Virus record (IMG/VR): IMGVR_UViG_3300036892_000014
Coordinates: 1-64,000 of that record
Origin: a virus
Direction: 5' to 3' (one strand)
Length of the DNA: 64,000 bases
In this document: positions 15,558 through 53,339 of the stretch, in pieces
Layout of the letters: every line of letters starts with the position of its first letter
Position numbering within the stretch: position 1 is the first letter of the stretch
Made by a program: the position numbers and the translations under genes
Notes under the pieces: generated by a model
Databases searched by the model: none
Told to the model about the DNA's origin: nothing
What the model saw: the letters and a program-made list of their open reading frames with translations, nothing else

Positions 15558-17087
15558 ATGGCCACAGTAACTGCACAACTAGCATCAGCGGCAAATTATG
15601 TGTTACTTGCGGCTGCTGGTATCACAAATTCGGGTTCGTCAATTATATCAGGTGGAAACATCGGCTCATACCCGACTACGTCTATCACTCCAGGCGCTTG
15701 GATTCTCATCCCGCCTAGCGTCATCGATAACGCCGACGCCCAGCAAGCGAACCTAGACGGGCTCGCAGCTTATAATTATTTTGCGGCACTTCCCTTCACT
15801 TCACTCTCAGCATCCTCTGTAAACCTTTCCGTTTCAGGAAACGGCGCAACACCCTTCACGTATACTCCCGGTAACTATTCCGCTGGAACAAGCATGGACA
15901 TCCCGACATCTATCACACTAGATGCGCAGGGAAACCCTCAAGCTGTGTTTATCTTCAAGGCGGGCAGCACTGTTACCCTTGAGAGCGGCGCTTCCATCAT
16001 TTTGGCTAACGGCGCGAATGCTGCGAATGTCGTTTGGTTGGTGGGCAGCTCATTGACGACCGTCTTCGCGGGCGTGTCTGTATTCAACGGACAGGTGCTC
16101 GCCGCTACATCTATCACACTCGGCGGTGGGAATTTTAATGGGCGTGCGCTAGCAGGATTGGTCAACAGTTCCGGCGCTATCACCATCGCAACAGCATTGA
16201 CCATGACAGGTTCTTCTGTCGCAGCCCAGCCGACTACGGCAGGCGGACAGGCGCAAGCATTGATCGCGTCTCAGCCAGGACAGACATTCCTACAGGCGTA
16301 TCCTCAAGTAACGCCGAACGGCATCGGCCCGCAGAATCTCGACCTGATGCACATCAAGGATGAGGGTGGATTTGATCTTGTAACTGTTGACTACACCGGA
16401 GCGGTACACGGCGGCGCAGGAAGCTACGCAACCAGTTTCGCATCGGCCTCTGTTGCAGTTTCCACGTTCGCTGTAACGAATGTGGTCGCTTCAACGGGCG
16501 TGTACACGGGAACATTCACGGGCGGCGCGGCTAACGCGTTCGCTGGTCAGAATGCAGTCATCCTCGGATTCACGAACGGCGGCAACAACGGCACGAAGCT
16601 TATCACGGCTTCATCTGCTACCACGATTACCGTATCGACCGCCGGTCTCGTAAATGAAACTGCGTCGGCTACCGCTTCGGTCTCAAACTTCAGCCTAGCG
16701 ACCTACACGGGAACCATTACGGGCGGCGCTAACAACGCCTACGCGGGACGTACGGTAACCTTCACGGGTTTCTTGGCGGGCACAGGCGCAAACAATGTGA
16801 CTGCGCTTGTTATCTCAAGCACGGCAACCACGTTGGTTGTTGCGTACTCCGATCAAGTCACCGAAACCCAAACAGGACTCGCAACGCTTCCGTCGGCCTT
16901 CGCGGCAGTGCCAGGTGGTACGCGTCTTGGAACGTATTACACCCGTCTAGGTCAGAGCGCAACCATCGCGCAGATATTCGCCGACGCCTTCACGAACCCG
17001 TCATTGCTTGACATCGTTCACATTGTTAATTTGGGAGGTAACATCAGTTACGTTTTGAATTACCAAGGTGTTGCGAGCGGAAGCTAA
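15558..17087 (+). CDS. DUF3494 ice-binding-domain protein, putative virion protein
   Basis: LDAQGNPQAVFIFK...LANGANAANVVWLVGSS...FNGQVLAATSITL...NGRALA matches DUF3494; two copies of a shared virion module follow. Confidence 0.85.
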   Translation: MATVTAQLASAANYVLLAAAGITNSGSSIISGGNIGSYPTTSITPGAWILIPPSVIDNADAQQANLDGLAAYNYFAALPFTSLSASSVNLSVSGNGATPFTYTPGNYSAGTSMDIPTSITLDAQGNPQAVFIFKAGSTVTLESGASIILANGANAANVVWLVGSSLTTVFAGVSVFNGQVLAATSITLGGGNFNGRALAGLVNSSGAITIATALTMTGSSVAAQPTTAGGQAQALIASQPGQTFLQAYPQVTPNGIGPQNLDLMHIKDEGGFDLVTVDYTGAVHGGAGSYATSFASASVAVSTFAVTNVVASTGVYTGTFTGGAANAFAGQNAVILGFTNGGNNGTKLITASSATTITVSTAGLVNETASATASVSNFSLATYTGTITGGANNAYAGRTVTFTGFLAGTGANNVTALVISSTATTLVVAYSDQVTETQTGLATLPSAFAAVPGGTRLGTYYTRLGQSATIAQIFADAFTNPSLLDIVHIVNLGGNISYVLNYQGVASGS

Positions 17088-17127
17088 ATCGGTTTAGCCC
17101 TCGGGGTTGCTCCCGAAGGTGAGACTT

Positions 17128-17179
17128 GGGGAGTGCCTACTCGCTCCCGTATTAAAACAAATCAGAAAGCGTAGGGAGC
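17128..17179 (+). promoter_or_regulatory. degenerate kissing-loop leader, copy F
   Basis: GGGAGTG-CCTACT-CGCTCCC with GTAGG partner at 17171; second stem lost. Confidence 0.45.
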
Positions 17180-17194
17180 AACAGGGGATTTAAA

Positions 17195-17575
17195 TTGGCA
17201 ATCACACAAGTAGAGTTAGCCACACCAGCGGGACTGTTTGTCTTTACGGATACGTCCATGGGGGCCTCTGTTGACGCAGTGAAGGCTTCTTCCGCTTTAG
17301 TGTATAGTATCAATATCAATAATTCTGCGAACAGTGTGCCGTCTTATGTTCGGCTGTTTAATCTGGCGTCAGGTTCGGTAATCGTCGGCACAACTGCCCC
17401 GGACTCAGTTTTGTATGTTCCTGCCAATGCAGTTGTTAGTTTTGCACTGTTCACGGGTGTACTGGCCGGAATAACTTTTGGTACGGCGCTATCTGCGTGC
17501 TGTGTCACGACAGGCGGAACGGCGGGCGTAACAGCGCCGTTGTCTTCCGTGGCCGTGACCATCACTTACGTTTAA
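17195..17575 (+). CDS. putative virion protein
   Basis: 126 aa, TTG start, beta-rich. Confidence 0.65.
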   Translation: MAITQVELATPAGLFVFTDTSMGASVDAVKASSALVYSININNSANSVPSYVRLFNLASGSVIVGTTAPDSVLYVPANAVVSFALFTGVLAGITFGTALSACCVTTGGTAGVTAPLSSVAVTITYV

Positions 17576-17708
17576 TATTCGCTATTTGCGAATCGAGAAC
17601 GGAGAAATTTAAAATTTTGTTAGCATCCAAAAGGGTGCTTCAATAAAGCGCAGCGTTTGCGTGCTAGAGTAATCGAAGCGCAGCGTTCGCGTTCATAGGG
17701 AGAAACAA

Positions 17709-18647
17709 ATGGGTGTTATCGCACAGTATCAAGTAAGCTTGGCATATCCGTCAACAGTCGGCGGAACGTCGGGCGTATTGCAGTATTTTTTCAGCAACAA
17801 CAGCCAGAACTTGTGGAACGTGGGCGCAACAGGCGTCAACACTCCGCAGAATAGCGCTCAGTTGGGCGCGGTTCCGTCAGCAACAAGTTCATTGGGTATG
17901 TTGCCATTCGACACCAGCGGATTCAAGTTGCAGGGCGGTCGTTTGTCTCTGTTTGTTTCCGGTGTGTTTTCATGCACGACTGGAACCCCGACGGTTACCC
18001 CGCTGATTCAGATTGTAACTCCGAATGCAACAACGGGTTCGATCTACACCAATCCGCAGTATACAGACTTCATGATAGGAGTCCCGTCTAGTGCATTGGT
18101 TGCAAACAGTCCGGTTGCGTTCTCAGCCGAAGCGGATATGGTTTTCGATCCGACCTCCGGAACGCTAGCTGGAATTCAGAACTACCAGATCGTGCCGAAG
18201 TCACCAGGGACGGCCTACGTATTGACGCAGGTAGCCGTTGCAGGAACCTCAACCACGTACACTGGAACCATCACGGGTGGTGCAGCGAATGCATACGCCG
18301 GTCAGACATTCCAGATTGCTGGATTCGCGGGCGCTGGCAACAACGTTAACGTGTTGGTTGTATCTTCAACCGCAACCACGTTGGTTGTAACGACCGCAAC
18401 CCAGGTTAACGAAACGCATGCTGCAACCGCAACGGGTGGTGGTGTGCCAGTTAACAACGGCCCAGGATTCTTCACTGCAATTCAGGGATTGGTTGCCGCA
18501 ACTCCGGTCAACCCGAACATCCCAGGACAGCAGACGAATTCTTACGGCATGAACCCGGGCTTTGGATTCGTAGCTGGAGTAACCTTCAGTTCAGGCAACG
18601 TTGGCAACAGCGCTAGCCTTTACGAGTTCAAGATCGTTCAGTTCTAA
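17709..18647 (+). CDS. putative virion protein with shared TGGAANAYAG module
   Basis: GGAG RBS, 312 aa. Confidence 0.75.
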   Translation: MGVIAQYQVSLAYPSTVGGTSGVLQYFFSNNSQNLWNVGATGVNTPQNSAQLGAVPSATSSLGMLPFDTSGFKLQGGRLSLFVSGVFSCTTGTPTVTPLIQIVTPNATTGSIYTNPQYTDFMIGVPSSALVANSPVAFSAEADMVFDPTSGTLAGIQNYQIVPKSPGTAYVLTQVAVAGTSTTYTGTITGGAANAYAGQTFQIAGFAGAGNNVNVLVVSSTATTLVVTTATQVNETHAATATGGGVPVNNGPGFFTAIQGLVAATPVNPNIPGQQTNSYGMNPGFGFVAGVTFSSGNVGNSASLYEFKIVQF

Positions 18648-18672
18648 TAAACCAATTTCGTTAGAGACTAAC

Positions 18673-18700
18673 GGGGCGCAGATACAGAACGCGCCCCTTG
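18673..18700 (+). terminator. possible terminator
   Basis: GGGGCGC/GCGCCCC hairpin, weak T-tract. Confidence 0.45.
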
Positions 18701-18769
18701 TCTGCTACGATACTGTGCAAACCAGGACCTGTCGGACGTTATAGTCGTTGACACCTTTTATAGGCTCCG

Positions 18770-19099
18770 ATGCTATTCCTAATTGCTCCCGCCGTCGAGG
18801 CGGTTCATTCTGTTGTTGAAATTCTCGGATGGCCTACGCTATTGGCAACGATAGTGTGGGTTGTACGCAAGTGGGACAAGCTGACAGGAGAATTGAGAAG
18901 CATTGATAAGCGCACGCAAGACAACTTGGTTACTACAACAGTCGTGAAGGCTGCCGTGGAAACGATTAGAGACAATCACCTGGCCCATGTCGAACAGGGC
19001 GTGAAAGATTTAGCGTCATCGCACGACAAGACTATTGAAGTATTGGGCAGCATCGACAAGAACATCGCACTTCTTGTGGACCGCTTCCCGAGGGCGTAA
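18770..19099 (+). CDS. membrane protein with coiled coil (possibly lysis-related)
   Basis: N-terminal TM, heptad-like C-terminus. Confidence 0.55.
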   Translation: MLFLIAPAVEAVHSVVEILGWPTLLATIVWVVRKWDKLTGELRSIDKRTQDNLVTTTVVKAAVETIRDNHLAHVEQGVKDLASSHDKTIEVLGSIDKNIALLVDRFPRA

Positions 19100-19100
19100 C

Positions 19101-19289
19101 ATGCCAGCCGTTTCTAAAGCGCAACAGATCGCTATGGCAATTGCCGAGCATCATCCAGAAGACCTTAACTCAGACAATGCGGGCTTGAAGAAGATGACAC
19201 ATCAGCAACTGCACGACTTCGCATCGACCCCGCGTAAGCATCTTCCTTCATATGTTCACGCGCATAAAGCACGTAAAGATGCTTCTTAA
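19101..19289 (+). CDS. DUF3008-like small protein
   Basis: MPAVSKAQQ...LHDFASTPRKHLP motif. Confidence 0.65.
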   Translation: MPAVSKAQQIAMAIAEHHPEDLNSDNAGLKKMTHQQLHDFASTPRKHLPSYVHAHKARKDAS

Positions 19290-19373
19290 TATTCGGATAC
19301 TTTGGAAGAGAATTCAACTTCATTGGCATTTGTTTAGACAAAAGTTGGGGCTTTACGATTAGGGAGACTGATA

Positions 19374-19592
19374 ATGGCTTTACTCCAACTTGAACCCTCC
19401 CTGCCGTTGGTAACGCCGAAAGGAAAGGGTCGCGCAGTCGTTTTGATTGACTACGGAATTGAAGAGAATTTGCTCTGGGTTGTTTTTATAGACGAGACAG
19501 GTGAGTGCTGGGCGTTCCAAAACAAAGATGTTCGTTTGGAGTCCAATATTACGATAGGGGCAAAGCGGGACTCATCACCATTGAGGAAGTAA
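19374..19592 (+). CDS. hypothetical phage protein
   Basis: GGAG RBS, 72 aa. Confidence 0.65.
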   Translation: MALLQLEPSLPLVTPKGKGRAVVLIDYGIEENLLWVVFIDETGECWAFQNKDVRLESNITIGAKRDSSPLRK

Positions 19593-20212
19593 TGAGACAG
19601 TTCTCAGATACCCCGTATAAGTTGGCTAGGATGACCAAGGAACCGATTCTCTATCTCGTTCGTCATGGCGCAACATTGGGTGATGATACATACAGTGGAC
19701 CACCGAATCCGCCCCTGACCGAACAGGGACGCAATGACGCCGCAGAAGTAGCGCAATTCTTTGTCGGCAGAAAGACGGGTGATATTGTTTCTTCTGAACT
19801 AGGTAGGACGCAAGCGACCGCTAATGAAATTGGAAAGGCACTCGGCAAGAAAGTCCAATTGAGTAAGGGACTAGATTCGCTCGACGTTGGGGATGTATCC
19901 AAGATCAAAGATAAAGACGAAGCGGATAAAGTAATTCATCACCACCAAGATAATCCGGATGAACCCATCCCTGGCGGCGAATCTATTAATCATTTTGACC
20001 GCAGGATTGAACCGGAGTTGATGAAGGGCATCGGCACTTACTACAAAACGGGGTTGCCGTCGATCTTCTCCATTCATCACAGTGTTCAGCACACAGCAGG
20101 AAAGATTTTTAATAATGACAAGGATTCCGCGTTGACTCATCCAGGTGGGGTAGTAGCAGTTTACAAAGATTCAAATGGCTTTCGGGCCGTTCCGATTTTT
20201 AAACCGGAATAA
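19592..20212 (+). CDS. histidine phosphatase superfamily protein
   Basis: LVRHG, LTEQG, SSxLxRTxxT, GGES and C-terminal His motifs. Confidence 0.85.
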   Translation: MRQFSDTPYKLARMTKEPILYLVRHGATLGDDTYSGPPNPPLTEQGRNDAAEVAQFFVGRKTGDIVSSELGRTQATANEIGKALGKKVQLSKGLDSLDVGDVSKIKDKDEADKVIHHHQDNPDEPIPGGESINHFDRRIEPELMKGIGTYYKTGLPSIFSIHHSVQHTAGKIFNNDKDSALTHPGGVVAVYKDSNGFRAVPIFKPE

Positions 20213-20227
20213 TTTTAGGAGTCAGTC

Positions 20228-20533
20228 ATGGCAAAGAAGCACCCGTTCAGTCATACTGTGGTTGAACACCACAAAGACGGAAGTCACACCGTCCACCACA
20301 TTCATGAGAAGCACGGTCATCAACACACCGCGCCTGTTCGTGAAGGCGATGTGAAGGGTGCGGCAGGCGGTCACGATGAGATGATGGATCACATGATGGA
20401 TCACACCTCTGAGCCGAACCCGGGCGAGGCAGAAGCGGCAGCGGGTCCAGCAGGCGCAGCACCAGCGGCAGCAGCCCCGGCAGCACCAGCGGCAGCACCG
20501 ATGGGCGCGTCGTCAACCGGCGCAGGACAGTAA
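20228..20533 (+). CDS. His-rich protein with Ala/Pro tail
   Basis: AGGAG RBS; HHKDGSHTVHHIHEKHGHQH. Confidence 0.7.
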   Translation: MAKKHPFSHTVVEHHKDGSHTVHHIHEKHGHQHTAPVREGDVKGAAGGHDEMMDHMMDHTSEPNPGEAEAAAGPAGAAPAAAAPAAPAAAPMGASSTGAGQ

Positions 20534-20572
20534 CATCGGACATTCCTCGGCCCATTACCGAGGCGCAGACTC

Positions 20573-20619
20573 GTGGGCGTGCCTAACTCACGCCCGCAGT
20601 CGCATTCTAGTTAGGAGAA
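20573..20619 (+). promoter_or_regulatory. kissing-loop RBS-masking leader, copy E
   Basis: GGGCGTG-CCTAACT-CACGCCC then TTCT-AGTTAGG-AGAA, ATG at 20624. Confidence 0.75.
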
Positions 20620-20623
20620 AGAT

Positions 20624-20755
20624 ATGCCTGTTAAGGGTCAGATTAATCCTGCGATTCGAGATCAGCGAACTATTTGGATGAGTCTAAGGAAATGAGATTA
20701 GAACCAACAACCGAGGATTTTACGGTTGCTTCGAAATTATTGCAGGAGCACTTAA
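20624..20755 (+). pseudogene. probable deletion remnant of an endonuclease gene
   Basis: 23-codon ORF after leader E; another frame has RSANYLDES, resembling EndoVII C-termini. Confidence 0.4.
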
Positions 20756-21452: not shown

Positions 21453-23729
21453 ATGCCTATTACAGGAATCGAAAAGGACCGCTTAAATTTTGTTGACGAG
21501 CGCGTTCGTACGCAGAAGGCTATATGGCCTGGAATCGTCGAGAAGTGGGATGCTGAAGCGAATGGAAAGCGCTACAAGTCCGAAGTCCTTTCGATGAAGG
21601 CGTTGTGGAACCTGTATGTGGGTGGCAATCCGGAACAGTTGACCGAGGAAGAAGAGGCTCGCGGTAAGAAGCCATTAAAGAAAAAAACCGGGTACGAAGT
21701 CATCCCGATCAAAGCGTTTGAGTTGCCTGGGCGATTTAACGAGAAGGGTCGCAAGCGCGACGACACCTTGATTCACACGGGTGTCAATGGCTATCTCCAC
21801 TTCAATCAGTGGTTGATGGCTCGCGATCAGGCGCGTAAGGATTTGTTCTGGTTCGGAAAAGAAGTCTTCCACATGGACTTCGAGCCTGAAGTGCATCAAG
21901 TAACCTGCAATCAGTTCGTGCAGAAAGATTTTGATGGCGTTTGGGTAGAAGATTATGGCCAGAAAGAATTTAAAGTAGCTATGGCAAGTCAGACTCGTAT
22001 TCCTAGAGTGTGGGTGCAGGCTGACGAGTACGAAAAGAATTCCTTGCGAGACATCGGGTACTATATGCCCGACCCAATAGAAGCGGAGAAAGGTCCTAAC
22101 CTTGCCCGCACTATGATTTTGTTGGACCCTCGTGGGTTCTTCAAGTCATACACAGACGCGCTAGATTGCGTCCAGTGGATTATCAACTGCCCAGACATTC
22201 GTATCCTCATCATGAGCGGTACGTATAAGTTGACATTGCAGTTCCTTGCCAACGCAAAGGGTAAGTTCTATCTTCCACGTGGACTACGTCCGACTTACTT
22301 TCATTTACTGTTCCCAGAATATGTTATTCGAGGGGTTGACGGTGATTCGAAAGAGCCTTTGATTCTCGACCCGACACTGCGCCGACTAGAGTCCCAAGAC
22401 CCGACGTTGGGAATCATGTCTATCGGATCGTCATTGTCCGGGTTCCACTGCGACGTGTTAAAGTTCGACGATATCGTCACAGACGAGAATTGCAACACGG
22501 ATGAGACCAGAGAAGGACTGAAGGACAAGGCCGACGGCGCGGTCAACTTGCGCATGCCGTGGGGCTGGACGGATATCATCGGGACGCGCTACTTCCCAGA
22601 TGACTATTACGGACTACTCTTGGACAAGTTCAAAGAAAGTCCAGAAGATTTTAACCTGAAGTTTTTTACCCGCGCTGCATGGGTAGTTAAGCCTGAGTTC
22701 AAAGACGTAGAAGAAAGAAGTTTGTTTGAACTGAAAGAGGATATGGTTGATCTGACCTTTCCACAGCATAAGTCATGGAAGAGTCTTCGTCAGGACTTGA
22801 AGAACGAGAAAAGTTTTCGCTGCCAGCAACTTAACCAACCTGTCTGGGGAAACGAGAACAGCGTCAAGTTTGATCGCGGCGTGTTGGAAGCGCACAGAGG
22901 TGTTAAACTATTGGCCGAAGTGGTCATGGCACCCGGAAAAGTTTACGGTGCTATTGACCTAGCGCGTGAGAACAAACAGTTCTCAGACTTCACGGCACTT
23001 GCTGTCGGAAAAGTCTATCAAGAAGGTTCGATCCCGATTCTTACACCAGAGCAAGCCGCAGCGTCAGTGCGGCTAGAAGGAAAGTGGATTCTGGTCGTCC
23101 TCGATGTGCAATTTGGGAAGTGGTCTCAGACGGAGATCGCGGCTAGGATTGCAAAGATGCATGACGTATGGCGTCCTTCGCAGTGGTACGGCGAGGATAC
23201 CGGCGGCATTCAGCTATTGAAGGAAAAGATTGTAGACGTATCCAAAACGACGTACGGCCATTGGCCGTATATTGATTGGAGAACGCCGGATAATTCCGAG
23301 AATGCAAAGCGAGGCCGCATCAAAGGCCTTGAGATGCTTCTTACCACCGATAGACTGTTCTTTTTGACGGGCGGGTGGAATTCGGAAGTGTTCGAACAAC
23401 TTGAGAAATATAAAGGACAGAAGAGTACGCGCTTCTTTAAGGATGACGTACCTGATGTTCTATCTCAGTTGGCTAATAAATATATTCCGAGCATCATTCA
23501 GAAGTCGAAAAAAGAATTGATCGAGGAAGCTAGTCAGAGGGAAGCCCAGTATAGGGAGTATCTTCGTCGCGAGGTCAAGAGACAGATTTACGGCGAGGAT
23601 AACGGGGGCTTCGGCATGGCAGCACCCAGTCAATCATATTGGTACAATGAGCCTCCCCCACAGCAGCCGTCATCGCCAGTGAGTGAGATTGCACGAAAGT
23701 TGTTTGGCGGCAATGGGATGAGGGGATAA
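21453..23729 (+). CDS. terL: terminase large subunit
   Basis: PRGFFKS Walker A, VLKFDD Walker B, GTRY motif III, nuclease AIDLA...DD. Confidence 0.9.
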   Translation: MPITGIEKDRLNFVDERVRTQKAIWPGIVEKWDAEANGKRYKSEVLSMKALWNLYVGGNPEQLTEEEEARGKKPLKKKTGYEVIPIKAFELPGRFNEKGRKRDDTLIHTGVNGYLHFNQWLMARDQARKDLFWFGKEVFHMDFEPEVHQVTCNQFVQKDFDGVWVEDYGQKEFKVAMASQTRIPRVWVQADEYEKNSLRDIGYYMPDPIEAEKGPNLARTMILLDPRGFFKSYTDALDCVQWIINCPDIRILIMSGTYKLTLQFLANAKGKFYLPRGLRPTYFHLLFPEYVIRGVDGDSKEPLILDPTLRRLESQDPTLGIMSIGSSLSGFHCDVLKFDDIVTDENCNTDETREGLKDKADGAVNLRMPWGWTDIIGTRYFPDDYYGLLLDKFKESPEDFNLKFFTRAAWVVKPEFKDVEERSLFELKEDMVDLTFPQHKSWKSLRQDLKNEKSFRCQQLNQPVWGNENSVKFDRGVLEAHRGVKLLAEVVMAPGKVYGAIDLARENKQFSDFTALAVGKVYQEGSIPILTPEQAAASVRLEGKWILVVLDVQFGKWSQTEIAARIAKMHDVWRPSQWYGEDTGGIQLLKEKIVDVSKTTYGHWPYIDWRTPDNSENAKRGRIKGLEMLLTTDRLFFLTGGWNSEVFEQLEKYKGQKSTRFFKDDVPDVLSQLANKYIPSIIQKSKKELIEEASQREAQYREYLRREVKRQIYGEDNGGFGMAAPSQSYWYNEPPPQQPSSPVSEIARKLFGGNGMRG

Positions 23730-25844
23730 ATGTCGGAACCGCTAAATAATCAGGCAGCGTTGATACTTGGGAATCGCGAGGTTACCGCTGCGGATCAGAT
23801 TACGTCAGAGAACATACACAAGGATAAGGATACTGGTACCTTCCTGTATGATGACCAAGCGGCTCTGAAGTTAGTTATTAACGATGCGGCAATGGCGGAC
23901 AACTACGCCAACGTCAATCAGTGGGCCAGCACTTGGACGCAGTCAGCGATTATTTTGCAGAGTCCAGCGAGCGCTTCGGCGTTCGACGGCGGCAACATAG
24001 CGCAGGCTAACGTTCCCAAGTTCACGTTATCGAACCACATAAGTGAGATAGTGCCGAAGATTATGGAAGGACTCTTTTATGAAGACCCTCCGTTTCTTCT
24101 TCGCCCGCGCCCGGGTACAAAACAGGAAATAGTCCGTTCAAAGACGGCACTGTTCTCTGCGCAATTGTGGGACATGCAGTTCAAGGTTGAGATGGAGCGT
24201 GGCCTTGAACAGATGGCGCTACTCGGCACCACAGTATTTAAGTGGGGCTACTTAGAGCGTCCCGTTAAATTGAAGCAGTTTCGCCGTAAGCAGGAACAGT
24301 TGCAACTTAATACATCTGTTCCAACTGACCCGATTAACACACCGGATTCTGACGCTTACGAAATGTTTATCCTCGACGAAGTGGAATCACGTCCGTGGAT
24401 AAAGTACTGTGATATTCGTACTGTATTGGTTGAGCCAGGATGCCGTTACGGCGATATCCGTCGCGCAAAGTGGGTAGTATATCGCGACTTTGCTACATAT
24501 GATGATTTGAACACGCTGCGCAATGTTCCAGGCTACGATATCCCCGACGAGAAAACGTTGAGGGCGTTGTTCATGTCTGGTGCGACAACGGGTGCTGACA
24601 ACATTACCATGACCATCCCAGAAGGGATGCGTGGTTATTTGCAGCAAGCGTTGCCACGTAGCTTCAGGAGTTCGACTGATGAGTTGCAGAACTCGTTGGA
24701 AATTCTTGAGCGCTGGGACAATGATAAGGTTATTGTCGCGCTTACCTTCAATGGTAAGCACATACTGATTCGTAACGAACTCAACCCGTACGGAAAGATT
24801 CCGTTCCTTTCGGCCAACTGGCGCAACCTGCCAGACAGTTTTTACGGACAAGGCCTAGGCCAGCTAATCGGAAGCGAGCAAATCGTGGAGCAGGGAGTTA
24901 CCAACCTTGCGCTCGATCTACTTGCTTATGGATTGCAGCCGACAGCCATTCGTAAGAAGGGCTTCAACGTTCCGACACAGATGACCCGTTGGAAGCAAGG
25001 CGGAATCATCGACGTTGACGACGACGTTGACAAGGCTTTTAAGTTTATGACCATGCCTCCCGTACCGAGCGAGGCTTGGCAATTCATTAACCAGGCAAAG
25101 CAGGATGCGGCTGGAACATCAGGTTCAAACGAAATCGTAGGCCAGGGCGGCACCGTCGGTGGTGGTCGCGGCACCGGAATGCGTTCGGGTACCGGAGCGG
25201 CAGCCGTTGTTCAGGCTAATGCTAGCCGACTTGACGGCCCGACCACACGCGTGATTGAGCAGGTTTTTGAACCGTGGCTTTACCAGATGGATCAGTTGAA
25301 TAATGAACTGCTTCCGACCAGTGTCCTCCGTCGTGTATTGGGCGAGGAAATGGGCAATGACTACTTGCAAGATCACATTGAATTTCGCAATGCGAAGTTT
25401 CAGTATGAAGTTCTTGCAGGAGCGCATCTCGGGGCCAAGAAAGAAATGGCTCAGGCGTTGCCAGTCATCATTCAACTTTTGAATAACCCGACGTTCGTGA
25501 AGAACGTTAATGACGGGCACTATCAGTTCGACGCGGTTGCAATCTTCAAGGCGTTTACGGATGCGGCAGGTTGGAAGTTCTCTCAAGAATTCCTACGCCC
25601 GATGACACCAGAAGAAACACAACGCTATGAAGCGAATTCGCCAGCGGCACTTCAGCAGCAACAGTTGAAGGCGCAGCAGAATCAGGCGCAGCAAAAGTTC
25701 CAACAGGAACAGCAATTAGAAGATCAAAAGCAACTCGGAAAGGCGGGAGCAGAAGTTCTTCGCGCAACAACTGAGCACAGCTTGTCTTCTGAAGATACGG
25801 GAGAACCGGGCAATCAAGGTTTCGGTTCGGAAGTTTCCGTTTAA
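23730..25844 (+). CDS. portal protein (P22-like)
   Basis: 704 aa after terL; NPYGKIPF, FYGQGLG, Gln-rich C-terminal barrel. Confidence 0.85.
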   Translation: MSEPLNNQAALILGNREVTAADQITSENIHKDKDTGTFLYDDQAALKLVINDAAMADNYANVNQWASTWTQSAIILQSPASASAFDGGNIAQANVPKFTLSNHISEIVPKIMEGLFYEDPPFLLRPRPGTKQEIVRSKTALFSAQLWDMQFKVEMERGLEQMALLGTTVFKWGYLERPVKLKQFRRKQEQLQLNTSVPTDPINTPDSDAYEMFILDEVESRPWIKYCDIRTVLVEPGCRYGDIRRAKWVVYRDFATYDDLNTLRNVPGYDIPDEKTLRALFMSGATTGADNITMTIPEGMRGYLQQALPRSFRSSTDELQNSLEILERWDNDKVIVALTFNGKHILIRNELNPYGKIPFLSANWRNLPDSFYGQGLGQLIGSEQIVEQGVTNLALDLLAYGLQPTAIRKKGFNVPTQMTRWKQGGIIDVDDDVDKAFKFMTMPPVPSEAWQFINQAKQDAAGTSGSNEIVGQGGTVGGGRGTGMRSGTGAAAVVQANASRLDGPTTRVIEQVFEPWLYQMDQLNNELLPTSVLRRVLGEEMGNDYLQDHIEFRNAKFQYEVLAGAHLGAKKEMAQALPVIIQLLNNPTFVKNVNDGHYQFDAVAIFKAFTDAAGWKFSQEFLRPMTPEETQRYEANSPAALQQQQLKAQQNQAQQKFQQEQQLEDQKQLGKAGAEVLRATTEHSLSSEDTGEPGNQGFGSEVSV

Positions 25845-27459: not shown

Positions 27460-28701
27460 ATGGCAGGCTCACCGAATCCGTCAGCAGCAAATGTAGGAAA
27501 TATACTGACGGCGCAAAGCATTATGTTTGATAAGGAACTCATCCCGAACTTGAAGGGAGAAACGGATGCGTTCATCGTAGCAGCAGAAAAGCGTGTACAG
27601 CCGAACGGCGTTGGTATCAACCGCCAGTTCTTCCAGTACAACACTTTGACTGGTGATACGACACAGGTAGGAGACGGAGTTGTTGGCTCACCGGAATTCG
27701 TCGGTCAGATCAGCGCCCCGGCTCAGTTGGGCGAATGGAACAACTACACGAACTTCAGTTCGTTCGTAATTGCTTCAGCGCTTGACGACCTAGTGGGTAA
27801 TTCCGCAGTCGAACTAGCCTACCAGGCTGGTCAGAGCATTTCCGAGTTGTACAGCGCCGTAGCAGACAGTGCTGGTCTAGCCTCAGTGGACACACAGGTT
27901 AACCAGAGCGCTTTGCTAGCATCGCCTTACACATTGGACTTGGCAACTGTACGTGAATTGAAGCAGCAGCTTGTTTCAAAGAACGTACTGCCGAACCGCA
28001 ATGGTAAGTTCGCAGGCGTTGTATCTTCTAACGTGTTGGGCGACATCTTCAACGCAACGACAGTGAACAACTCAATCGTTGACTTGTGGAAGTACGCAAA
28101 CATCGAGAAGTTCGACAAGATCGCTGGTGCAGACCAGAAGATGGACATCGAACTCCCGGGAACGAACATCGTGCTTCGTCAGACGCCGTTCGTAACCACG
28201 ACCGCTAACTACGCTGGCTCAGGTAAGATTTCTTACCGTACCTACGTAATGGGACAGTATGCCTTGATCGGCATCTGGCAGCAAGTTGGTGGAGACACCG
28301 ACTTGGGTGACGGAGACTGGCGCACAATCGACTGCAAGGTCGTAGAGAGCGCACCGGCATCAGCATTTGATCCGACGGGAACAATCGGTGGATAAAGAGT
28401 ACTGTCCACTTTAAATTTTCTCTGATTGACTTGAACGCTGAAAAGCCAACAAGGGGCAAGCCGAAAGGCAGCCTGAACGACTAAGTGAGAAAACACCCTC
28501 TGACAAAAGGGTGATGCGATAGTCTGACCATACGGGAATCAAAACCGTATGAACCGAACAGAAATGATTCGGTACACTCTGGTGAGTGTTAACAAGAGCG
28601 GGTGCTCATATAAATTTCACCAAACAGTTTCATTGCCGCCAGCACGTGGGGCTAACACCCAGCGTATGCGCTACATTGACTCTGTCCCAGCAATTCAGTA
28701 A
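27460..28701 (+). CDS. major capsid protein, spliced (join 27460-28393, 28601-28701; 344 aa)
   Basis: Position after scaffold; splicing gives DPTGTIGG-W-CSYKFHQTV...DSVPAIQ. Confidence 0.85.
28394..28600 (+). mobile_element. group I intron without an ORF (207 nt)
   Basis: P1 GGTGGAT/GTCCACT with U:G, P10 GAGTAC/GTGCTC, R CTGAACGACTA, S GATAGTCTG, terminal G. Confidence 0.9.
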
Positions 28702-30853: not shown

Positions 30854-32197
30854 ATGGCTAACTTCCCTAATTCACAAGCGACATATACGTTGCAGAACAT
30901 GCTCGACAAGGTGCTCCCTCTTGGAGATGTGCGCCCAGTCTTGAGTGAAATTGCCGGTTACCAACTTGAACCATTCATTACGATCTGCACCGACGTTTAT
31001 CGCGAAATCGTAGGTGTGCCGTTTCCTCACAAGTGGAATGAAATCCAGTGCCCGCAATTTTATACGAACAGCCTTCAACAAGATTATGTGCTTTTGAATC
31101 CAGACGGTACCAGTTTTTATAATCTAGAATGGTTGGAGCGCGGCATGGCTGTCGAGATGACATCAAACGTGCTCCCGAAGCCATGGGGCTATGTTGAGTG
31201 CGGTCGTCAACTTCCTGCGGTAACGGGCACCATCGAACAGTTTGCCGGATGGGAAAATCCCACCTTCGTCTGCAACACCTTTCCAAATTACATGTTATAC
31301 TACGGAACCTGGGGCGCGAACAAGGCATCGGCATCGCAAGGAAATAACCCAGAGCCTGGAAGACCCATCTTCAATCCGCTAGGCGCGTCAGTCCTGGCCG
31401 CCACATACACTGCTGGCACAATCATTTTCACACTTAACTATGTTCCACAGGGTCTCATCGTTGGCGGTAACATGACCGTTGGTGCTGCGTTCCCGCGTAC
31501 GTATAACAACACGTACGTCATTACTGCTATCCTAGGAAACAATATTACTGTAACGTCTGTGATAAATCCGGGCGTATATGAAGCAGGTGGAATCATATCG
31601 GTTCTCGGAAACGACAACACGCCATACTTGTTCAGTCTGTCCCAACTTCAGAATCCAATTTGCCAAATCAAAGACACAAATGGAAACCTTCAGGTTGTGA
31701 CACAGTACGGAGTCTGTGGACTCAATCAACCAGCATGGCCTGCATCGAATGCTGCGCCAGGAACCCAAACGAATGACGGGACAGTCATATGGACGGTTGC
31801 CGATCCGAACGGCATGGGGGTTCGTATTCTTCCTGTTCCGAATCAAAGTGGGGTTGTGTTTCAGATTAATCTAGTCGGACAGATGCCAGCAATCCAGTTC
31901 ACGGATTTGTCAGACACGATTGCACCGCTCCCAAATAAGTACGAGAGTTACTTCCGTCAGGGTGTCATCGCGCAGTGTTACCGCTACAGCCCCGATCCGA
32001 AGATACGCGCAAAGTTTGATATAGAATTTAAGTTGTGGAAGTTGACGTTGAATGATCTTCGTGCTGCGGAAGATCGTGAACTCGAAGAGAACCGTTTCGT
32101 TCCTGAGCAGTCTATTTGGTCACGTGGCGGTTCACGTGGTGGTACTTGGCGCGGAGCAGGATATCCGTTCAACTATCCGGGTGGTACGGGATACTAA
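30854..32197 (+). CDS. putative head-tail adaptor protein
   Basis: Position; paralogous with 48096-49043 (P..WN...QDY...LE.G). Confidence 0.6.
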   Translation: MANFPNSQATYTLQNMLDKVLPLGDVRPVLSEIAGYQLEPFITICTDVYREIVGVPFPHKWNEIQCPQFYTNSLQQDYVLLNPDGTSFYNLEWLERGMAVEMTSNVLPKPWGYVECGRQLPAVTGTIEQFAGWENPTFVCNTFPNYMLYYGTWGANKASASQGNNPEPGRPIFNPLGASVLAATYTAGTIIFTLNYVPQGLIVGGNMTVGAAFPRTYNNTYVITAILGNNITVTSVINPGVYEAGGIISVLGNDNTPYLFSLSQLQNPICQIKDTNGNLQVVTQYGVCGLNQPAWPASNAAPGTQTNDGTVIWTVADPNGMGVRILPVPNQSGVVFQINLVGQMPAIQFTDLSDTIAPLPNKYESYFRQGVIAQCYRYSPDPKIRAKFDIEFKLWKLTLNDLRAAEDRELEENRFVPEQSIWSRGGSRGGTWRGAGYPFNYPGGTGY

Positions 32198-33444: not shown

Positions 33445-34134
33445 ATGGCTACCGAAGCAGAACTTTCGCAACAGATAGTGGCGCTACACAAGCGCCTACT
33501 GAAGATGGAACAGGAACACACCTCGCGCAGGGGTCTGCCTGGTGAGAGGGGCGAGGCTGGTGCGCCTTCTTTTATTCCCGGGCCGCAGGGAGTACAGGGA
33601 ATTCCCGGCCAATCTATTCGCGGTGAAAAAGGCGATTCAGTGCGCGGAGAAAAAGGTGAGCCAGGAATTTCTAATACACCGGGACCCCCTGGGGCGAACG
33701 GGGCAGACGGAAGAGATGGCATCGATGGAAAGAACGGTGTAGATGGAAAATCCGGCAGAGACGGAAAGAACGGAGCGGACGGGAAAAACGGCGTAGATGG
33801 AAAAGATGGTACCGATGGAAAGAACGGTGTAGACGGAAAGCCGGGCATAGACGGTAAGAACGGAGTAGACGGGAAAGATAGCATCGACGGAAAAGACGGT
33901 ATCAATGGAAAGAATGGCATCGACGGAAACCCCGGCACAAATGGGAAGAACGGTCTTGACGGCAAAGATGGTGTCAACGGTAAAGATGGTGTCGATGGCA
34001 AAGACGGCATCGGAACACCAGGCCCCCGTGGACCAGCTGGAGACATTTCTGCTGCCCTGTCCAACTGCGAAAAGTATGTACAGACAGAGTTAGCTGCTTT
34101 CAGAAAAGAAATTCTTAGTCTTTTAGCCAAGTGA
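33445..34134 (+). CDS. collagen-like triple-helix protein
   Basis: Long G-X-Y run (GKNGVD/GKDG). Confidence 0.85.
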   Translation: MATEAELSQQIVALHKRLLKMEQEHTSRRGLPGERGEAGAPSFIPGPQGVQGIPGQSIRGEKGDSVRGEKGEPGISNTPGPPGANGADGRDGIDGKNGVDGKSGRDGKNGADGKNGVDGKDGTDGKNGVDGKPGIDGKNGVDGKDSIDGKDGINGKNGIDGNPGTNGKNGLDGKDGVNGKDGVDGKDGIGTPGPRGPAGDISAALSNCEKYVQTELAAFRKEILSLLAK

Positions 34135-48083: not shown

Positions 48084-48095
48084 CAAGGAAGCTAA

Positions 48096-49043
48096 ATGAG
48101 TTTACTAAATAATTTATCAACGAGTGTAGCATTTTCCAAGCCATTTCTTGCGGGCGTATCTCTCTTCGCATGGAACAACTCGGAACCTGCGTGCAGCGTC
48201 CAGCAGTTGGTACGCAATATAATTCTAGGTGCCCCGTATATATGGCCATGGAATCGCTCAAATTTTCCACTGACTATCACAACCGCCAACCAAGATTATC
48301 CAGTCTCTATTCCAAATTTCGGATTCTTAGAGAAGGGTTCGCTTCAAGACAGCACAGGAAAATTCTATCAAATTCCGACCGTGTATAATACAACTGGGTT
48401 GGCTGTAAGTACGACCAAGGCCCGTCCTATGACGATATCGATAGAAACAAATGATGGGAATGGGAATCTCTTACTGCGTTTCAGTGCCGTACCCGACCAA
48501 AGTTATACCGTAAATCTTGTCTATCTGAGGGCATCTGCGCCCGAGGGCATCGGTGTTCAGCCAAATGGAATCGCCAGTGCAGCAGCCGCATCACAGGGGA
48601 ATACGGCCTATACAGGTTCATTTAACCCCGCGGCGCTTCCTGCGTTGTCATACACAGTCATATCTGGATTTGTCAACGCGGGGAACAACGGAACATTTGT
48701 GATCGTCTCCTGCTCAGCTACAACACTAGTCGTAGCCAATGAGAATGGTGTTGTGGAAACGCCGCTTACCACGGCAAGTGCATTTCCAAATGCATGGGCT
48801 CCGATTCCAGATCAATTCTCGGATATCTTCAACCCACTGTTTTTGGCAGAAATGGCTGCACCCTATGACCCGCAATTATCCGCGGAGTACCGTAAGCGTG
48901 GTATGGCGGCATTGATCGCACGTCAGGATGGGTTGCTAGCAACGGCGAAAAATGTATTCGCTGAAACGTCGCAAGACAAGGAAGCTGAGAAGCAGCGTGA
49001 AGCGCTTGAAGTAACTCAGGCCGTTCAGGCTCGCGGAGTTTAA
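48096..49043 (+). CDS. putative tail adaptor (tail tubular A-like)
   Basis: Paralog of 30854-32197; precedes the large tail protein. Confidence 0.6.
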   Translation: MSLLNNLSTSVAFSKPFLAGVSLFAWNNSEPACSVQQLVRNIILGAPYIWPWNRSNFPLTITTANQDYPVSIPNFGFLEKGSLQDSTGKFYQIPTVYNTTGLAVSTTKARPMTISIETNDGNGNLLLRFSAVPDQSYTVNLVYLRASAPEGIGVQPNGIASAAAASQGNTAYTGSFNPAALPALSYTVISGFVNAGNNGTFVIVSCSATTLVVANENGVVETPLTTASAFPNAWAPIPDQFSDIFNPLFLAEMAAPYDPQLSAEYRKRGMAALIARQDGLLATAKNVFAETSQDKEAEKQREALEVTQAVQARGV

Positions 49044-52000
49044 ATGGGACAGCAACTATTTGGAAAGGAAGGGGCGCAAACAGGGAAGGGGCCGAAGTGG
49101 ACTCCTCTGCTTGCGGACAGACTCTTCACAGGTTTGTTCACGAATCGTGCGCCGCTCGGGGACACTGCGGATTCGTTTGCTGCGAAGCTTTACTATGGCG
49201 GACGCAAAGATACATTGTGGGATGACGGAACCGGAGACTATTCTAAGAACGTAGAACTCACAAATAAGTTGACGCTGCAACGACGTTTCGGACTTTCTGA
49301 ATTTTCTAGTTTCTTGTATCCGACACCTCCTAATCGAGCATATAGGTTCGAACTATCTACCGGAGATATTCAGGTAATCATTGATACTCCGTCTGGTGTG
49401 TATTGGGATCAGCAAGACGGTAATGTCGTATTATTGTATTCAAAGGTTGGCGCACCGATCACAGCGGATGCCCTTTTCGCGGGGTTGCCGGGGAATCCTG
49501 CGGTAGCAGTCGTTTCCGCTGCGAATGATTTTGAGAACGGGCAGAGGGTTTACCTCAGCGGCACTATAAACGGAAGCGGTGAACTAAACGGGTGGCAGAC
49601 GGTACTTATCGCAAACCCAGTAACCGGGCAGTTTCAGTTCGATTTTCCTGTTACAGGCGATATAGAATATTTTAATGGGACGCCCGATGTGGGTTTTGTT
49701 AGCACGTCAGGGCCTGCTTATTTTCAGTCTGTGGGCGATATTCTTTATATCGGAGATGGGCCCAACCTTTACGCCTATACCCCGTTGAACACGAACGTTT
49801 CCGGCATAGGAAATAATCAAATTTGGCTATGGGGTATCCAACCTCCAACGAACCAACCACTTTTGACAGTTACGCCATCTGGTAGCGCTGCTGTTGCATG
49901 GCAGGCGGATACCGCATTTACGACCATGGGTCTAGTTATCGACGCGGGCGCGGGTGGTACAGGTGATATCTTTCAATTAGTCAATGTGAACGCTGCATTG
50001 ACAAATTCTACACAGTTCGCGACGACGGGAAACGGTCAGCCAGCATGGAACCAAATTCCGGGCGGGACAACTACAGATAACACCATCACATGGACGAACA
50101 AGGGACCTATCGTCGCCTGGACTCCGGACACTGCGTACAACAATGCGACTCTCGGTGGAACTTTGGCGCAACCTTGTATTATTTACGATCCAGGTTGTTC
50201 CGCATGCTATATTTCAACCAGTTCATCGGTGGGAACCAGCAGCCAAAATAAACCAAAATTCACTGGGGCATTTGGCCAAAAGATTTTAGATGGAACGGAC
50301 TTTAGCGGTGTCTTCTGGTTCTGCCTGGGCTCGCCGAAGATTATGGGAATCTGGCAGCCAAGTACGGCATATCCTGCGCTCGGTTCTGTTCATGATAACG
50401 ACTCAGTCTCGGGTATTTCCGAACCCGTTGGCCCTGTTGCTGCGGGCATCGGCGGCGCAACGCCTCAGCAAATTTTCTGGCAGACATCAGCGGGCGGAAC
50501 ATCGGGCACGGGTGGCACGGGTCCGTTTCAAATGGGGACGGCGGTGGGCACGCTTACGACTGACAACAATAACATTCAGTGGCTGGCGTTAGGAAGCCCG
50601 ACATGGACAGCCGGTCGCACCATCTTGGGCTACACGACCTTCGGCGCAGTCTTCACTGCGATCAAGGACTCTAACGGAAACTTCCAGGTCGCGCTGACTT
50701 CAGGAACGGCGGGAACGGTGCAGCCGGTATGGCTGACGGAATACGGTCAGGTCACGACCGAGACAGGCGGAACGCTTGTCCAGTGGGTTAACGTTGGTCC
50801 TAGCATGAACTGGGTAGCGTCTACAATCTTCTACCTACCAGTCGGGGGCTTTGCTCCTCCAACGGGTGCAGGCGCAGGAACGGATAACCCGTACCCCGGT
50901 TCAATCGTAGTTGATACGAACGGGAACCTACAAGCGGTAATAGCTTCTGGCGTCAGTGCAGGCTCTCACCCAGTTTGGGCAACCATCTTAAACAATTCAA
51001 CAACGGATGGTACAATCACATGGCGAATGGTCGGAACACAGTCTGTGGAAAGTCTTTCTTGGCTTACATCGCATACCTGGGCAGTAAGTTACAAGGCACG
51101 TTCGACTGACGATTATTACTCAACCAAATTGACCACGACGAGCGCAACAGGTGTTAGCACGACTGCGCTACCGATTCCACCAGGACGTAAGCAACCGCTA
51201 CCAGCAATCACAGGTTCAGGGACGGGAGATATTTCATCTGCATCTCCAGTTACAACACTGACAGGAGCAAATGCAGGAGCAGTCGTACAACTTCAAATTC
51301 TAGGCAGCACGAACCCAGCCGTTGACACGATTGTAATCTGGCGCGATGCGGATGGCGGCGGTCTCGATAATATGTTTGAGTTAACCGAAATTCCGAACGT
51401 ACCGCCAATTAACGGTGTAGCACAATTCGCTTATTTCAATGACTACTTGCCAGATATTCCGACGACAGTCAGTGGAGTATTGTTGCCCGGATTGGACAAT
51501 CTAAGTCCAGCTCCGATTGACGATGTGAACGATCCGCCTCCTGCGGGCTATCTCCCGATGGCGTTCTACTATGAGCGCATCTGGGGGTCGGTAGGAAATA
51601 CCGCTTACATTTCTGGCGGCCCAGACACCTTGGTGGGTAATCCGAATTCTTGCTTTAATCCGTCGGACAATTTCTCATTCTCAAGTCAAATTACGAGAAT
51701 TCAACCGAATCCGTCTGTGATGCTTTGCTTCACTACGTCCGATATAGACGGTGTTTATGGCGGCCCGCAGACTGCGTCATTTTACCCGGGCAATGTATCA
51801 CCTGGTATCGGGTTACGCTCATTCAATGCATTGGACACGTACGGTGGGGAAGTTTACTTCTTCAGTTCTGGAAGGCAGTTCATGACACTGTCTCCGAATC
51901 TAAGCGTTGCTGAACTAGGATTTCCGGTTCAAAATGTTCTAGCAAATATTGACCCGACTAATGCATATGTTGCGGTTCTGCAAGCAGAGGGAGATAACTC

Positions 52001-53339
52001 AATCTACGTGGGTACTGGCTTGAGTCCTTCTGCCGTTGGAATCGGAACGATTACGCCGGGAACAGATGCGCTAAAGGCTGCCCTAGGAATTGCGGCAACT
52101 TACGCGTTACTAGCAGCCGCAGGCATCACGAATTCGGGTGCCACATTAATCACAGGCGGAAATATCGGCTCATTCCCGACCACGAGCATCACGGGATTCG
52201 TCGGAAGCAACTTCACTCCACCTGCGACAACGGACAATACAGATGCTGCGGCAGCCCAGACGGCAGCATTAAGTGTATACAATTTGTATTCTGGGTTGAC
52301 GTTCGTATCGTTGAGCGCGTCATCCGCTGATTTGTCTGTTCTAGGTAACGGAGCTACGGCTTCGACTTATAATGCAGGAAATTACTCAGCGGGAACGAGT
52401 ATGGATATTCCTACAAGCATCACGCTAGACGCTCAAGGCAACCCAAACGCAGTCTTTGTATTCAAGGCTGGTAGCACGTTGGTTCTAGAGAGCGGGGCAT
52501 CAATCATCTTAGCCAATGGCGCTCAAGCTGAAAACGTTGTGTGGCTCGTGGGCAGTTCAGCCACGACTGTAGGCACCGTAGGCGTATTCAATGGAAACAT
52601 TCTAGCTAACACGAGCATCAGTCTCGGCGGTGGAACCTTGAACGGTCGTGCTCTAGCAGGCATCGTAACCAGTTCGGGGGCAATCACTATCGCGACAGCT
52701 ACAAATATCACGGTTCCGAGTATCGCTACGGTATTGACTCCTGGTGGAGGAACCGGAACAGGTTGGTACAGATTAAATCCTCGCCAGATGCCCGAGCAGA
52801 CTGCGGTATGGTCTCCGTTTGCTGCGCCGGTCACGGGTTGCAAGATGCTTCAGACGATTGAAATATCCACTGGCGTGCATAAACTTCTAGTCGGCAGTAC
52901 ATTAGTCAATGAGCCAATTGGGGAGCGCAACACATCAATATTCACCGATCTAGGCGCATCTTATCCTTCATACTTCACAATCGGTTCTCTAGTGTTGTGT
53001 CCGCCGTCGCAGATTGCCGTTCTCGGTTTCATTGAGGGTGATTATGCTGCGCTAGGCGATCATCCACAGGTCAGTGTTCTTTTGAATGAAGTCTCGGGGG
53101 ATTTCACGAACGTGCCATTTACAGGAATCTATGATTCTCCATCGGTCTACGGAGACAGTGGAACCATAATTCCTACAAGCTATTATCCGCTGCGCTATGA
53201 ATTTAGCGGCATCTTAGATGATAACACCGAACCTAGGGTAGCTCGTCACTTGATGATGCAGTTTGATTTTGGCGTCCAGCCCGTAGGTTCAGAACTTTGG
53301 GATTTCACTTTGTATGGGCATGTCATGCAGGAAAAGTAA
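49044..53339 (+). CDS. tail tubular B / nozzle-like protein with inserted DUF3494 ice-binding domain
   Basis: YYERIWG-type propeller blades, WT-rich repeats, DUF3494 at about 52083-52715. Confidence 0.75.
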   Translation: MGQQLFGKEGAQTGKGPKWTPLLADRLFTGLFTNRAPLGDTADSFAAKLYYGGRKDTLWDDGTGDYSKNVELTNKLTLQRRFGLSEFSSFLYPTPPNRAYRFELSTGDIQVIIDTPSGVYWDQQDGNVVLLYSKVGAPITADALFAGLPGNPAVAVVSAANDFENGQRVYLSGTINGSGELNGWQTVLIANPVTGQFQFDFPVTGDIEYFNGTPDVGFVSTSGPAYFQSVGDILYIGDGPNLYAYTPLNTNVSGIGNNQIWLWGIQPPTNQPLLTVTPSGSAAVAWQADTAFTTMGLVIDAGAGGTGDIFQLVNVNAALTNSTQFATTGNGQPAWNQIPGGTTTDNTITWTNKGPIVAWTPDTAYNNATLGGTLAQPCIIYDPGCSACYISTSSSVGTSSQNKPKFTGAFGQKILDGTDFSGVFWFCLGSPKIMGIWQPSTAYPALGSVHDNDSVSGISEPVGPVAAGIGGATPQQIFWQTSAGGTSGTGGTGPFQMGTAVGTLTTDNNNIQWLALGSPTWTAGRTILGYTTFGAVFTAIKDSNGNFQVALTSGTAGTVQPVWLTEYGQVTTETGGTLVQWVNVGPSMNWVASTIFYLPVGGFAPPTGAGAGTDNPYPGSIVVDTNGNLQAVIASGVSAGSHPVWATILNNSTTDGTITWRMVGTQSVESLSWLTSHTWAVSYKARSTDDYYSTKLTTTSATGVSTTALPIPPGRKQPLPAITGSGTGDISSASPVTTLTGANAGAVVQLQILGSTNPAVDTIVIWRDADGGGLDNMFELTEIPNVPPINGVAQFAYFNDYLPDIPTTVSGVLLPGLDNLSPAPIDDVNDPPPAGYLPMAFYYERIWGSVGNTAYISGGPDTLVGNPNSCFNPSDNFSFSSQITRIQPNPSVMLCFTTSDIDGVYGGPQTASFYPGNVSPGIGLRSFNALDTYGGEVYFFSSGRQFMTLSPNLSVAELGFPVQNVLANIDPTNAYVAVLQAEGDNSIYVGTGLSPSAVGIGTITPGTDALKAALGIAATYALLAAAGITNSGATLITGGNIGSFPTTSITGFVGSNFTPPATTDNTDAAAAQTAALSVYNLYSGLTFVSLSASSADLSVLGNGATASTYNAGNYSAGTSMDIPTSITLDAQGNPNAVFVFKAGSTLVLESGASIILANGAQAENVVWLVGSSATTVGTVGVFNGNILANTSISLGGGTLNGRALAGIVTSSGAITIATATNITVPSIATVLTPGGGTGTGWYRLNPRQMPEQTAVWSPFAAPVTGCKMLQTIEISTGVHKLLVGSTLVNEPIGERNTSIFTDLGASYPSYFTIGSLVLCPPSQIAVLGFIEGDYAALGDHPQVSVLLNEVSGDFTNVPFTGIYDSPSVYGDSGTIIPTSYYPLRYEFSGILDDNTEPRVARHLMMQFDFGVQPVGSELWDFTLYGHVMQEK

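Follow-up and report, generated by a model that had tools for sequence, protein, structure and literature searches.

The window analysed here, a 64,000-nucleotide stretch of phage DNA from an uncultured peat/permafrost phage (positions 1-64,000 of the IMG/VR record IMGVR_UViG_3300036892_000014, 83,881 bp in full), encodes two domains of the DUF3494 family (Pfam PF11999; Ice_binding), one at the N-terminus of a 509-amino acid (aa) protein and the other inserted into a 1431-aa protein which is predicted to form the tail nozzle or hub. Both copies are complete, canonical ice-binding-fold domains, and they belong to a phage-only lineage of swappable cassettes in structural proteins of peat and soil podophages. 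We suggest, with a probability of roughly 0.55, that the two domains are accessory, host-independent binding cassettes on the virion exterior, with a putative role in adhesion. The presence of DUF3494 in probable phage structural proteins represents a new setting for a known family, and no description of DUF3494 in such proteins was found in the literature searched.

The first domain is found in the following open reading frame (ORF):

15558..17087, + strand: 509-aa protein with an N-terminal DUF3494 domain, a low-confidence linker, two FCCH-like β-barrels and a conserved C-terminal module (ORF, PF11999 and AlphaFold2 (AF2) model)

15558..16217, + strand: DUF3494 domain of the 509-aa protein, aa 1-220 (AF2 predicted local distance difference test score (pLDDT) ~96; PF11999)

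At a curated cut-off of 28.7 bits, PF11999 matches aa 17-200 of this protein (Bitscore: 108.2; E-value: 5.8e-31) and aa 1023-1216 of the 1431-aa protein (Bitscore: 122.8; E-value: 2e-35), and in a six-frame search covering all 83,881 bp of the record, two places only were identified, at 15606-16157 (111 bits) and 52110-52691 (127.3 bits). These hidden Markov model searches uphold the initial annotation, which had recognized two DUF3494 domains in predicted virion proteins: both are complete and lie where it had placed them, and the stretches GNYSAGTSMDIPTSITLDAQGNP and LESGASIILANGA, which it quoted as shared, are identical in both copies. Its observation that no signal peptide is evident also holds, as the domain's first strand opens the 509-aa protein (aa 17 corresponds to Pfam position 2), leaving no space for such a peptide, while the nozzle copy is internal to its protein; judged from domain position, neither copy carries a secretion signal. 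Compared by BLASTP of the two proteins, the domains share 68% amino acid identity over 205 aa (E-value: 4e-66). The nozzle copy furthermore matches the PDB sequences of IBPv, AnpIBP and EfcIBP (E-values: 1e-21 to 6e-18), well above chance level. The AF2 model of the 509-aa copy comprises a triangular β-solenoid and a long α-helix (residues 61-76) covering the full domain. Structural comparison with VIA aligned 199 of 203 residues with AnpIBP (7bwy; Z: 29.9) at a root-mean-square deviation (rmsd) of 1.6 Å, and yielded Z-scores of 28-29 to IBPv (5uyt), EfcIBP (6eio) and FfIBP (4nu2) and of 26-29 to all remaining solved ice-binding proteins of the DUF3494 family. To the experimentally proven ice-binding proteins the 509-aa copy shows 32-36% amino acid identity, with rmsd values of 1.5-1.8 Å.

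The second domain is carried by a larger protein, which directly follows an adaptor-like gene:

48096..49043, + strand: 315-aa adaptor-like protein with an FCCH-like barrel at aa 165-229, homologue of gp13 of phage Tunturi_3

49044..53339, + strand: 1431-aa tail nozzle/hub protein with a β-propeller-rich core, homologue of Tunturi_3 gp19 (AF2 and VIA)

52020..52751, + strand: inserted segment of the nozzle, aa 993-1236, consisting of short linkers and the DUF3494 domain (alignment to gp19; PF11999 at 52110-52691)

The closest isolate is Tunturiibacter phage Tunturi_3 (PP885686), a 97.6-kb podovirus from Arctic tundra Acidobacteriota (PMC11924767), which is alone among GenBank phages in encoding a relative of the 1431-aa protein. 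In a large protein collection, 96 relatives were found, most of which are 1010-1400 aa in length and lack PF11999. The nozzle model, which covers aa 232-1431 and has a core pLDDT of ~90, was compared structurally with VIA and Foldseek. The best 15 VIA matches are all nozzle or hub chains (Z: 11.3-14.1; 312-456 residues aligned), including those of GP4 (8jov_A; Z: 14.1; 361 residues), P22 gp10 (Z: 13.2; 342 residues), SU10 (Z: 12.6; 343 residues), the crAss001 muzzle (Z: 12.3; 453 residues), Sf6 gp8 (Z: 12.2; 342 residues) and T7 gp12 (Z: 11.6; 347 residues), while generic WD40 propellers reach at most Z 11.1 over ~220 residues. Foldseek probabilities of 0.99-1.0 were obtained for SU10, A4, Pa223 and GP4. 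The last base of the ORF at 48096-49043 immediately precedes the nozzle start, and a nozzle gene is expected to follow that of the adaptor; Tunturi_3 gp13, the homologue of this ORF, scores 26.7 bits against PF24175 (SU10_adaptor), just below the cut-off of 27. The predicted fold and the synteny thus support the assignment of the 1431-aa protein as a podovirus nozzle/hub, although at the sequence level the family has no match outside the insert in Pfam, PHROGs or PDB, including a search of PDB with a 30-sequence profile. The protein shares its propeller-based core with the nozzles of T7 (gp12), P22 (gp10), Sf6 (gp8), SU10, GP4 and crAss001 (gp44), but it is much larger, carries the DUF3494 insert and resembles them by fold rather than by sequence. 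We know of no DUF3494 insert in any solved nozzle. The sole PHROG match of the family is a marginal 'head decoration' match to a 38-aa repeat. As the family folds as a podovirus nozzle/hub, the GenBank label of Tunturi_3 gp19 (11995-15405) as a 'head decoration protein' is probably wrong, and correction to tail nozzle appears warranted.

In-frame and 244 aa long, the insert occupies a loop of the nozzle. In the AF2 model, this loop follows the last hairpin of the propeller and precedes the strand that opens the C-terminal β-sandwich, the flanking strands being at model residues 753-759 and 1010-1017. Tunturi_3 gp19 is homologous in its N-terminal, middle and C-terminal parts (24.9-36.6% amino acid identity in local alignments) but lacks the insert: aa 992 and 1240 of the query align with gp19 aa 950 and 953, the intervening segment thus shrinking to gp19 aa 950-953. 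Approximately 70 homologues, gp19 among them, are without the insert, and the insert-free relatives are continuous across the site (...DGSTGWYRL...); no isolated phage is known to have it. The alignment to these relatives and the nozzle fold bear out the earlier proposal that the second domain is inserted into the tail nozzle. Both insert junctions are spanned with zero differences by contigs of two further samples (permafrost and peat, from different studies), and an assembly chimera can therefore be ruled out as the source of the nozzle-DUF3494 fusion. Several studies furthermore contain near-identical copies of the stretch 51500-53339 in their metagenomes from peat, permafrost or freshwater; the metagenome matches place the phage in peat/permafrost, in keeping with the cold soil or permafrost origin which the initial annotation had named as a point to check. 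Within the nozzle family, DUF3494 is found at three sites, namely that of the window, 70-110 aa into the C-terminal domain, and near the N-terminus. Four homologues (P0046, P0060, P0064 and P0077) reveal another hot spot for insertions, 40-120 aa from the start of the C-terminal domain, where unrelated inserts of 75-260 aa occupy a site that holds DUF3494 in other members. The inserts of P0046 and P0064 have no Pfam match, reach Atlas scores of 0.82 only and are mutually dissimilar.

A scan of IMG/VR with the nozzle copy as query identified 44 loci (34-73% amino acid identity to the nozzle copy), and most of those with enough flanking DNA have portal, terminase and capsid genes homologous to those of the window. 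Encoded upstream of the terminase in these loci are domain carriers resembling the 509-aa protein, and immediately behind the capsid gene lie genes for carriers of 330-550 aa; other carriers are 1116-2086 aa long, and an 845-aa protein has two copies of the domain. The latter, with its two tandem phage-clade domains, occurs nearly unchanged on L011, L012, L014, L015 and L031, on contigs of up to 186 kb. In a tree of 173 DUF3494 domains, both window copies fall within a clade of 49 viral and metagenomic rows with zero cellular members (support: 98). The closest cellular relatives share 36-45% amino acid identity with the phage domains and are scattered over many soil phyla, and no single cellular donor lineage stands out.

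The two copies are not sisters within this clade. The 509-aa copy pairs with its own orthologues (84% amino acid identity), while the nearest relatives of the nozzle copy are found in two adaptor homologues, P0081 (77%) and P0082 (74%), and each copy is thus closer to the cassettes of other phages (77-84%) than to its fellow copy (68%). The copies share 62% nucleotide identity, with saturated synonymous divergence (pS: 0.74), and the suggestion of the initial annotation that the domain was duplicated within this genome does not stand. A recent intragenomic duplication or gene conversion is excluded, since 17 of 23 codons differ within an identical 23-aa stretch of the two copies and the longest exact DNA word in common is 11 nt.

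Strong purifying selection acts on the cassette, the conservation of which exceeds that of the portal, capsid and terminase encoded by the same genomes. Comparison of the 509-aa protein with its L005 orthologue gives ratios of non-synonymous to synonymous substitution (dN/dS) of 0.11 for the domain and 0.20 for the remainder. Across ten related genomes, the domain shares 53-58% amino acid identity with that of the window, against 33-36% for the portal, 34-36% for the capsid and 25-27% for the terminase. This pattern reflects either unusually strong constraint on the domain or lateral movement of the cassette, both of which argue against a fast-evolving, host-specific receptor-binding domain.

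The remainder of the 509-aa protein is built of modules which are also found in tail proteins. Some homologues of its C-terminal 295 aa carry the N-terminal domain (lengths: 505-587 aa) and others do not (279-361 aa), and DUF3494 is therefore an optional N-terminal add-on in this family. Between the domain and the C-terminal module, and in neighboring and tail-block genes, FCCH-like barrels are encoded (the first three entries); the fourth entry is a protein whose C-terminal segment recurs in a relative:

16455..16889, + strand: two tandem small β-barrels of the 509-aa protein, aa 300-378 and 381-444, FCCH-like (VIA and jackhmmer)

17709..18647, + strand: 312-aa relative of Tunturi_3 gp7, encoded in the gene cluster of the 509-aa protein and containing an FCCH-like barrel

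55486..57873, + strand: 795-aa tail-block protein with an FCCH-like barrel at aa 375-451

15069..15542, + strand: 157-aa protein encoded upstream of the 509-aa gene

The barrel at aa 300-377 resembles the FCCH domain of ubiquitin E1 (UBA6/Uba1; VIA Z: 8.8). By jackhmmer, this ~70-aa barrel is present in five copies in four window proteins (two in the 509-aa ORF and one each in the ORFs beginning at 17709, 48096 and 55486), at 16455-16889 (two), 18219-18434, 48588-48782 and 56608-56838, with the motif YTGTxTGGAANAYAGQ...GF..GNN...SSTATTLVV, and as such looks like a second shuffled virion module. Furthermore, P0081 and P0082, which are ~900-aa relatives of the 315-aa adaptor-like protein, contain a DUF3494 and FCCH cassette in the middle of the protein which shares 50% amino acid identity over 453 aa with the 509-aa protein. 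The shared modules suggest that the latter is a fibre- or decoration-like protein. The last 94 aa of the 157-aa protein (aa 64-157) recur at the C-terminus of P0085 (aa 1265-1357; 57% amino acid identity), a 1357-aa DUF3494-bearing protein of a relative, and this segment may represent a shared anchoring or trimerisation module.

The proposed binding cassettes would be displayed in multiple copies. As known nozzles are hexamers and a 25-kDa solenoid cannot fit in the DNA channel, about six nozzle copies would project from the tail tip, with more copies on the 509-aa protein. In the canonical DUF3494 topology, the last coil lies beside the first and the ends are adjacent (PMC11645318), and the domain would therefore splice easily into loops. 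By way of the flat, Ser/Thr-lined B face, virions could then adhere, multivalently and reversibly, to a hydrated surface which is extended and repetitive and does not differ from host to host. In habitats such as seasonally frozen peat and permafrost, ice may tentatively be ranked first among the candidate ligands; by binding to it, virions would be retained at ice-vein interfaces or suffer less damage from recrystallisation. Alternatively, the ligand may be a common environmental or envelope polymer. It is possible, though less likely than not, that phages of this clade bear a functional ice-binding domain in high copy number on their tail and head-proximal proteins, and that such virions adhere to the ice-vein surfaces where their hosts persist in frozen soil, or survive freeze-thaw through recrystallisation inhibition.

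The residues of the putative binding face were mapped onto the published ice-binding site of AnpIBP (PMC7277481), in which changes of S153 and T156 to Tyr lower the activity to 17%. The Ser/Thr ladder is kept on the phage B face, with S1171 and T1174 of the nozzle corresponding to S153 and T156, and so is the TSIT loop, the B-face rows being AGITNS, TSIT, TSMDIP, STLVLE, SSATTVG and TSISLG.

Several points weigh against the proposed adhesion cassettes and, in particular, against ice as their ligand. The same B-face residues are equally conserved in temperate soil homologues (Streptomyces, Kitasatospora and Danish soil metagenome-assembled genomes); the ladder is a family-wide trait, and these residues are therefore no evidence for ice and were dropped as a test for ice binding. 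The B face of the phage clade furthermore often contains Asp (59%) and Glu (55%), which are unusual at the centre of an ice-binding site. The fold of the nozzle copy is taken from its 68% identity to the 509-aa copy, as the insert is poorly modelled (pLDDT ~30) because few alignment rows cover it, and homologous nozzles are the guide to its presumed exposure and number of copies. A place for the 509-aa protein in the virion is presumed, being plausible in view of the modules it shares with other proteins, and the high conservation of the domain could stem from recent lateral exchange of the cassette, rather than from an invariant ligand.

Among the alternative explanations, host-specific receptor binding would see the solenoid recognise a capsule, extracellular polymeric substance (EPS) or lipopolysaccharide glycan of the host, probably a member of the Acidobacteriota, as a primary adsorption domain comparable to a tailspike β-helix. 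The domain is indeed located on adsorption hardware, namely the nozzle, the adaptor homologues P0081 and P0082, and P0087, in which a sub-threshold match to a depolymerase C-terminal domain can be observed (20.4 bits; cut-off: 25). Swapping of modules among tail proteins is furthermore typical for host-range determinants, and the cultured relative Tunturi_3 infects an EPS-rich acidobacterium. However, the conservation of the domain far beyond the core genes and its low dN/dS are the opposite of the fast divergence expected of a host-specific receptor-binding domain. The domain is also encoded next to the capsid gene and in many other, unrelated places, so that its geometry relative to a receptor is not critical, and PF11999 is absent from the whole genome of Tunturi_3, where the same search that recovers both copies in the record of the window returned no match. 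This explanation is therefore considered rather unlikely.

The 509-aa protein might, by contrast, be a soluble, non-virion ice-binding auxiliary which is released at lysis to protect the host or the progeny. Stand-alone PF11999 genes of viral contigs have been interpreted as auxiliary in the literature (PMC11515562), and the 509-aa gene is located apart from the main head-tail block, between the transfer RNA (tRNA) array and the terminase. This seems improbable, however, as the protein lacks a signal peptide, the remainder of it consists of FCCH-like barrels known from tail-block proteins, and its complete DUF3494 and FCCH arrangement sits inside the adaptor homologue of relatives; nor is the explanation applicable to the nozzle copy. 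A rigid solenoid may also merely brace or space the tail as a ligand-free structural filler, and the unrelated 200-260-aa inserts which other nozzle homologues carry at the nearby hot spot suggest that inserts are tolerated as such. Recruitment of the domain independently to at least three nozzle sites and several other proteins, and the stronger constraint on the domain than on the surrounding scaffold, render such a passive role very improbable.

Of the known systems, the cap-less, single-domain IBP-1 proteins AnpIBP (7BWX/7BWY), EfcIBP (6EIO) and IBPv (5UYT) belong to the same Pfam family as the phage copies and share the fold over the whole domain (Z: 29-30). Cellular IBP-1 proteins are secreted by cold-adapted cells as stand-alone or tandem domains, with measured ice binding, whereas the phage copies lack a signal peptide, are fused into predicted virion proteins and form a phage-only clade. 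SfIBP_1 of Shewanella frigidimarina (6BG8; Z: 27.2 to the 509-aa copy), a proposed ice adhesin with DUF3494 on an Ig-like stalk, resembles the 509-aa protein in that DUF3494 is located at the end of small β-domains, but it is a bacterial cell-surface protein. The accessory Ig-like, FN3 and carbohydrate-binding domains of phages, such as T4 Hoc, are optional, swappable and dispensable for assembly, and mediate weak multivalent adhesion; the DUF3494 cassettes resemble these in their proposed role but differ in fold.

Viral PF11999 has been reported from Arctic marine contigs, where stand-alone copies were described as 'auxiliary metabolic genes' and read as host-protecting (Rahlff et al. 2024, PMC11515562). 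The window shares with these contigs the presence of PF11999 on viral DNA from a cold habitat, but its copies are found in structural proteins rather than as free-standing, non-structural genes, the nozzle copy being internal and the other modules of the 509-aa protein being found also in tail-block proteins. Synechococcus phage S-SKS1 has been named as a holder of viral ice-binding-like homologues (PMC11515562), but a six-frame PF11999 search of its genome (HQ633071, 208 kb) returned no match at E <= 0.01. The BFVD database includes DUF3494 proteins of Hyperionvirus and a few large uncultured-phage proteins of similar fold.

Cold soils harbor huge viral populations, and phages are active below 0 °C. 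To our knowledge, no structural adaptation of virions to ice has been described. Should the cassettes bind ice, this would be the first case of ice binding as a function of the virus particle itself, a particle-borne cold adaptation spread among phages as a swappable unit, and would provide both a ready multivalent display of such domains and a metagenome marker for freeze-adapted phages. DUF3494 proteins are found worldwide and may bind various substrates (PMC7783341); if the ligand of the phage cassettes is not ice, its identity would show the role of the very widespread non-polar DUF3494 domains.

Additional genes of the window place the 509-aa gene outside the main head-tail block:

7190-15004: tRNA array of 28 genes, ending ~550 bases before the 509-aa gene

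21453-23729: large terminase

23730-25844: portal

27460-28395: major capsid protein, with a block of large structural genes downstream

Tunturi_3 has the capsid, several tail-block genes and gp19 in common with the window, at 25-35% amino acid identity. For the 509-aa protein, no tblastn match at E <= 1e-3 was found across 50,697 GenBank phage records. The ORF at 33445-34134 encodes a 229-aa product with collagen-like repeats which matches many PHROG tail-fibre families. Furthermore, a short repeat, NGNxQ...SG...PxW....TxDG.xxW, is common to the nozzle, the product of the ORF at 30854-32197, and gp12, gp13 and gp19 of Tunturi_3, and probably forms propeller blades or a related β unit.

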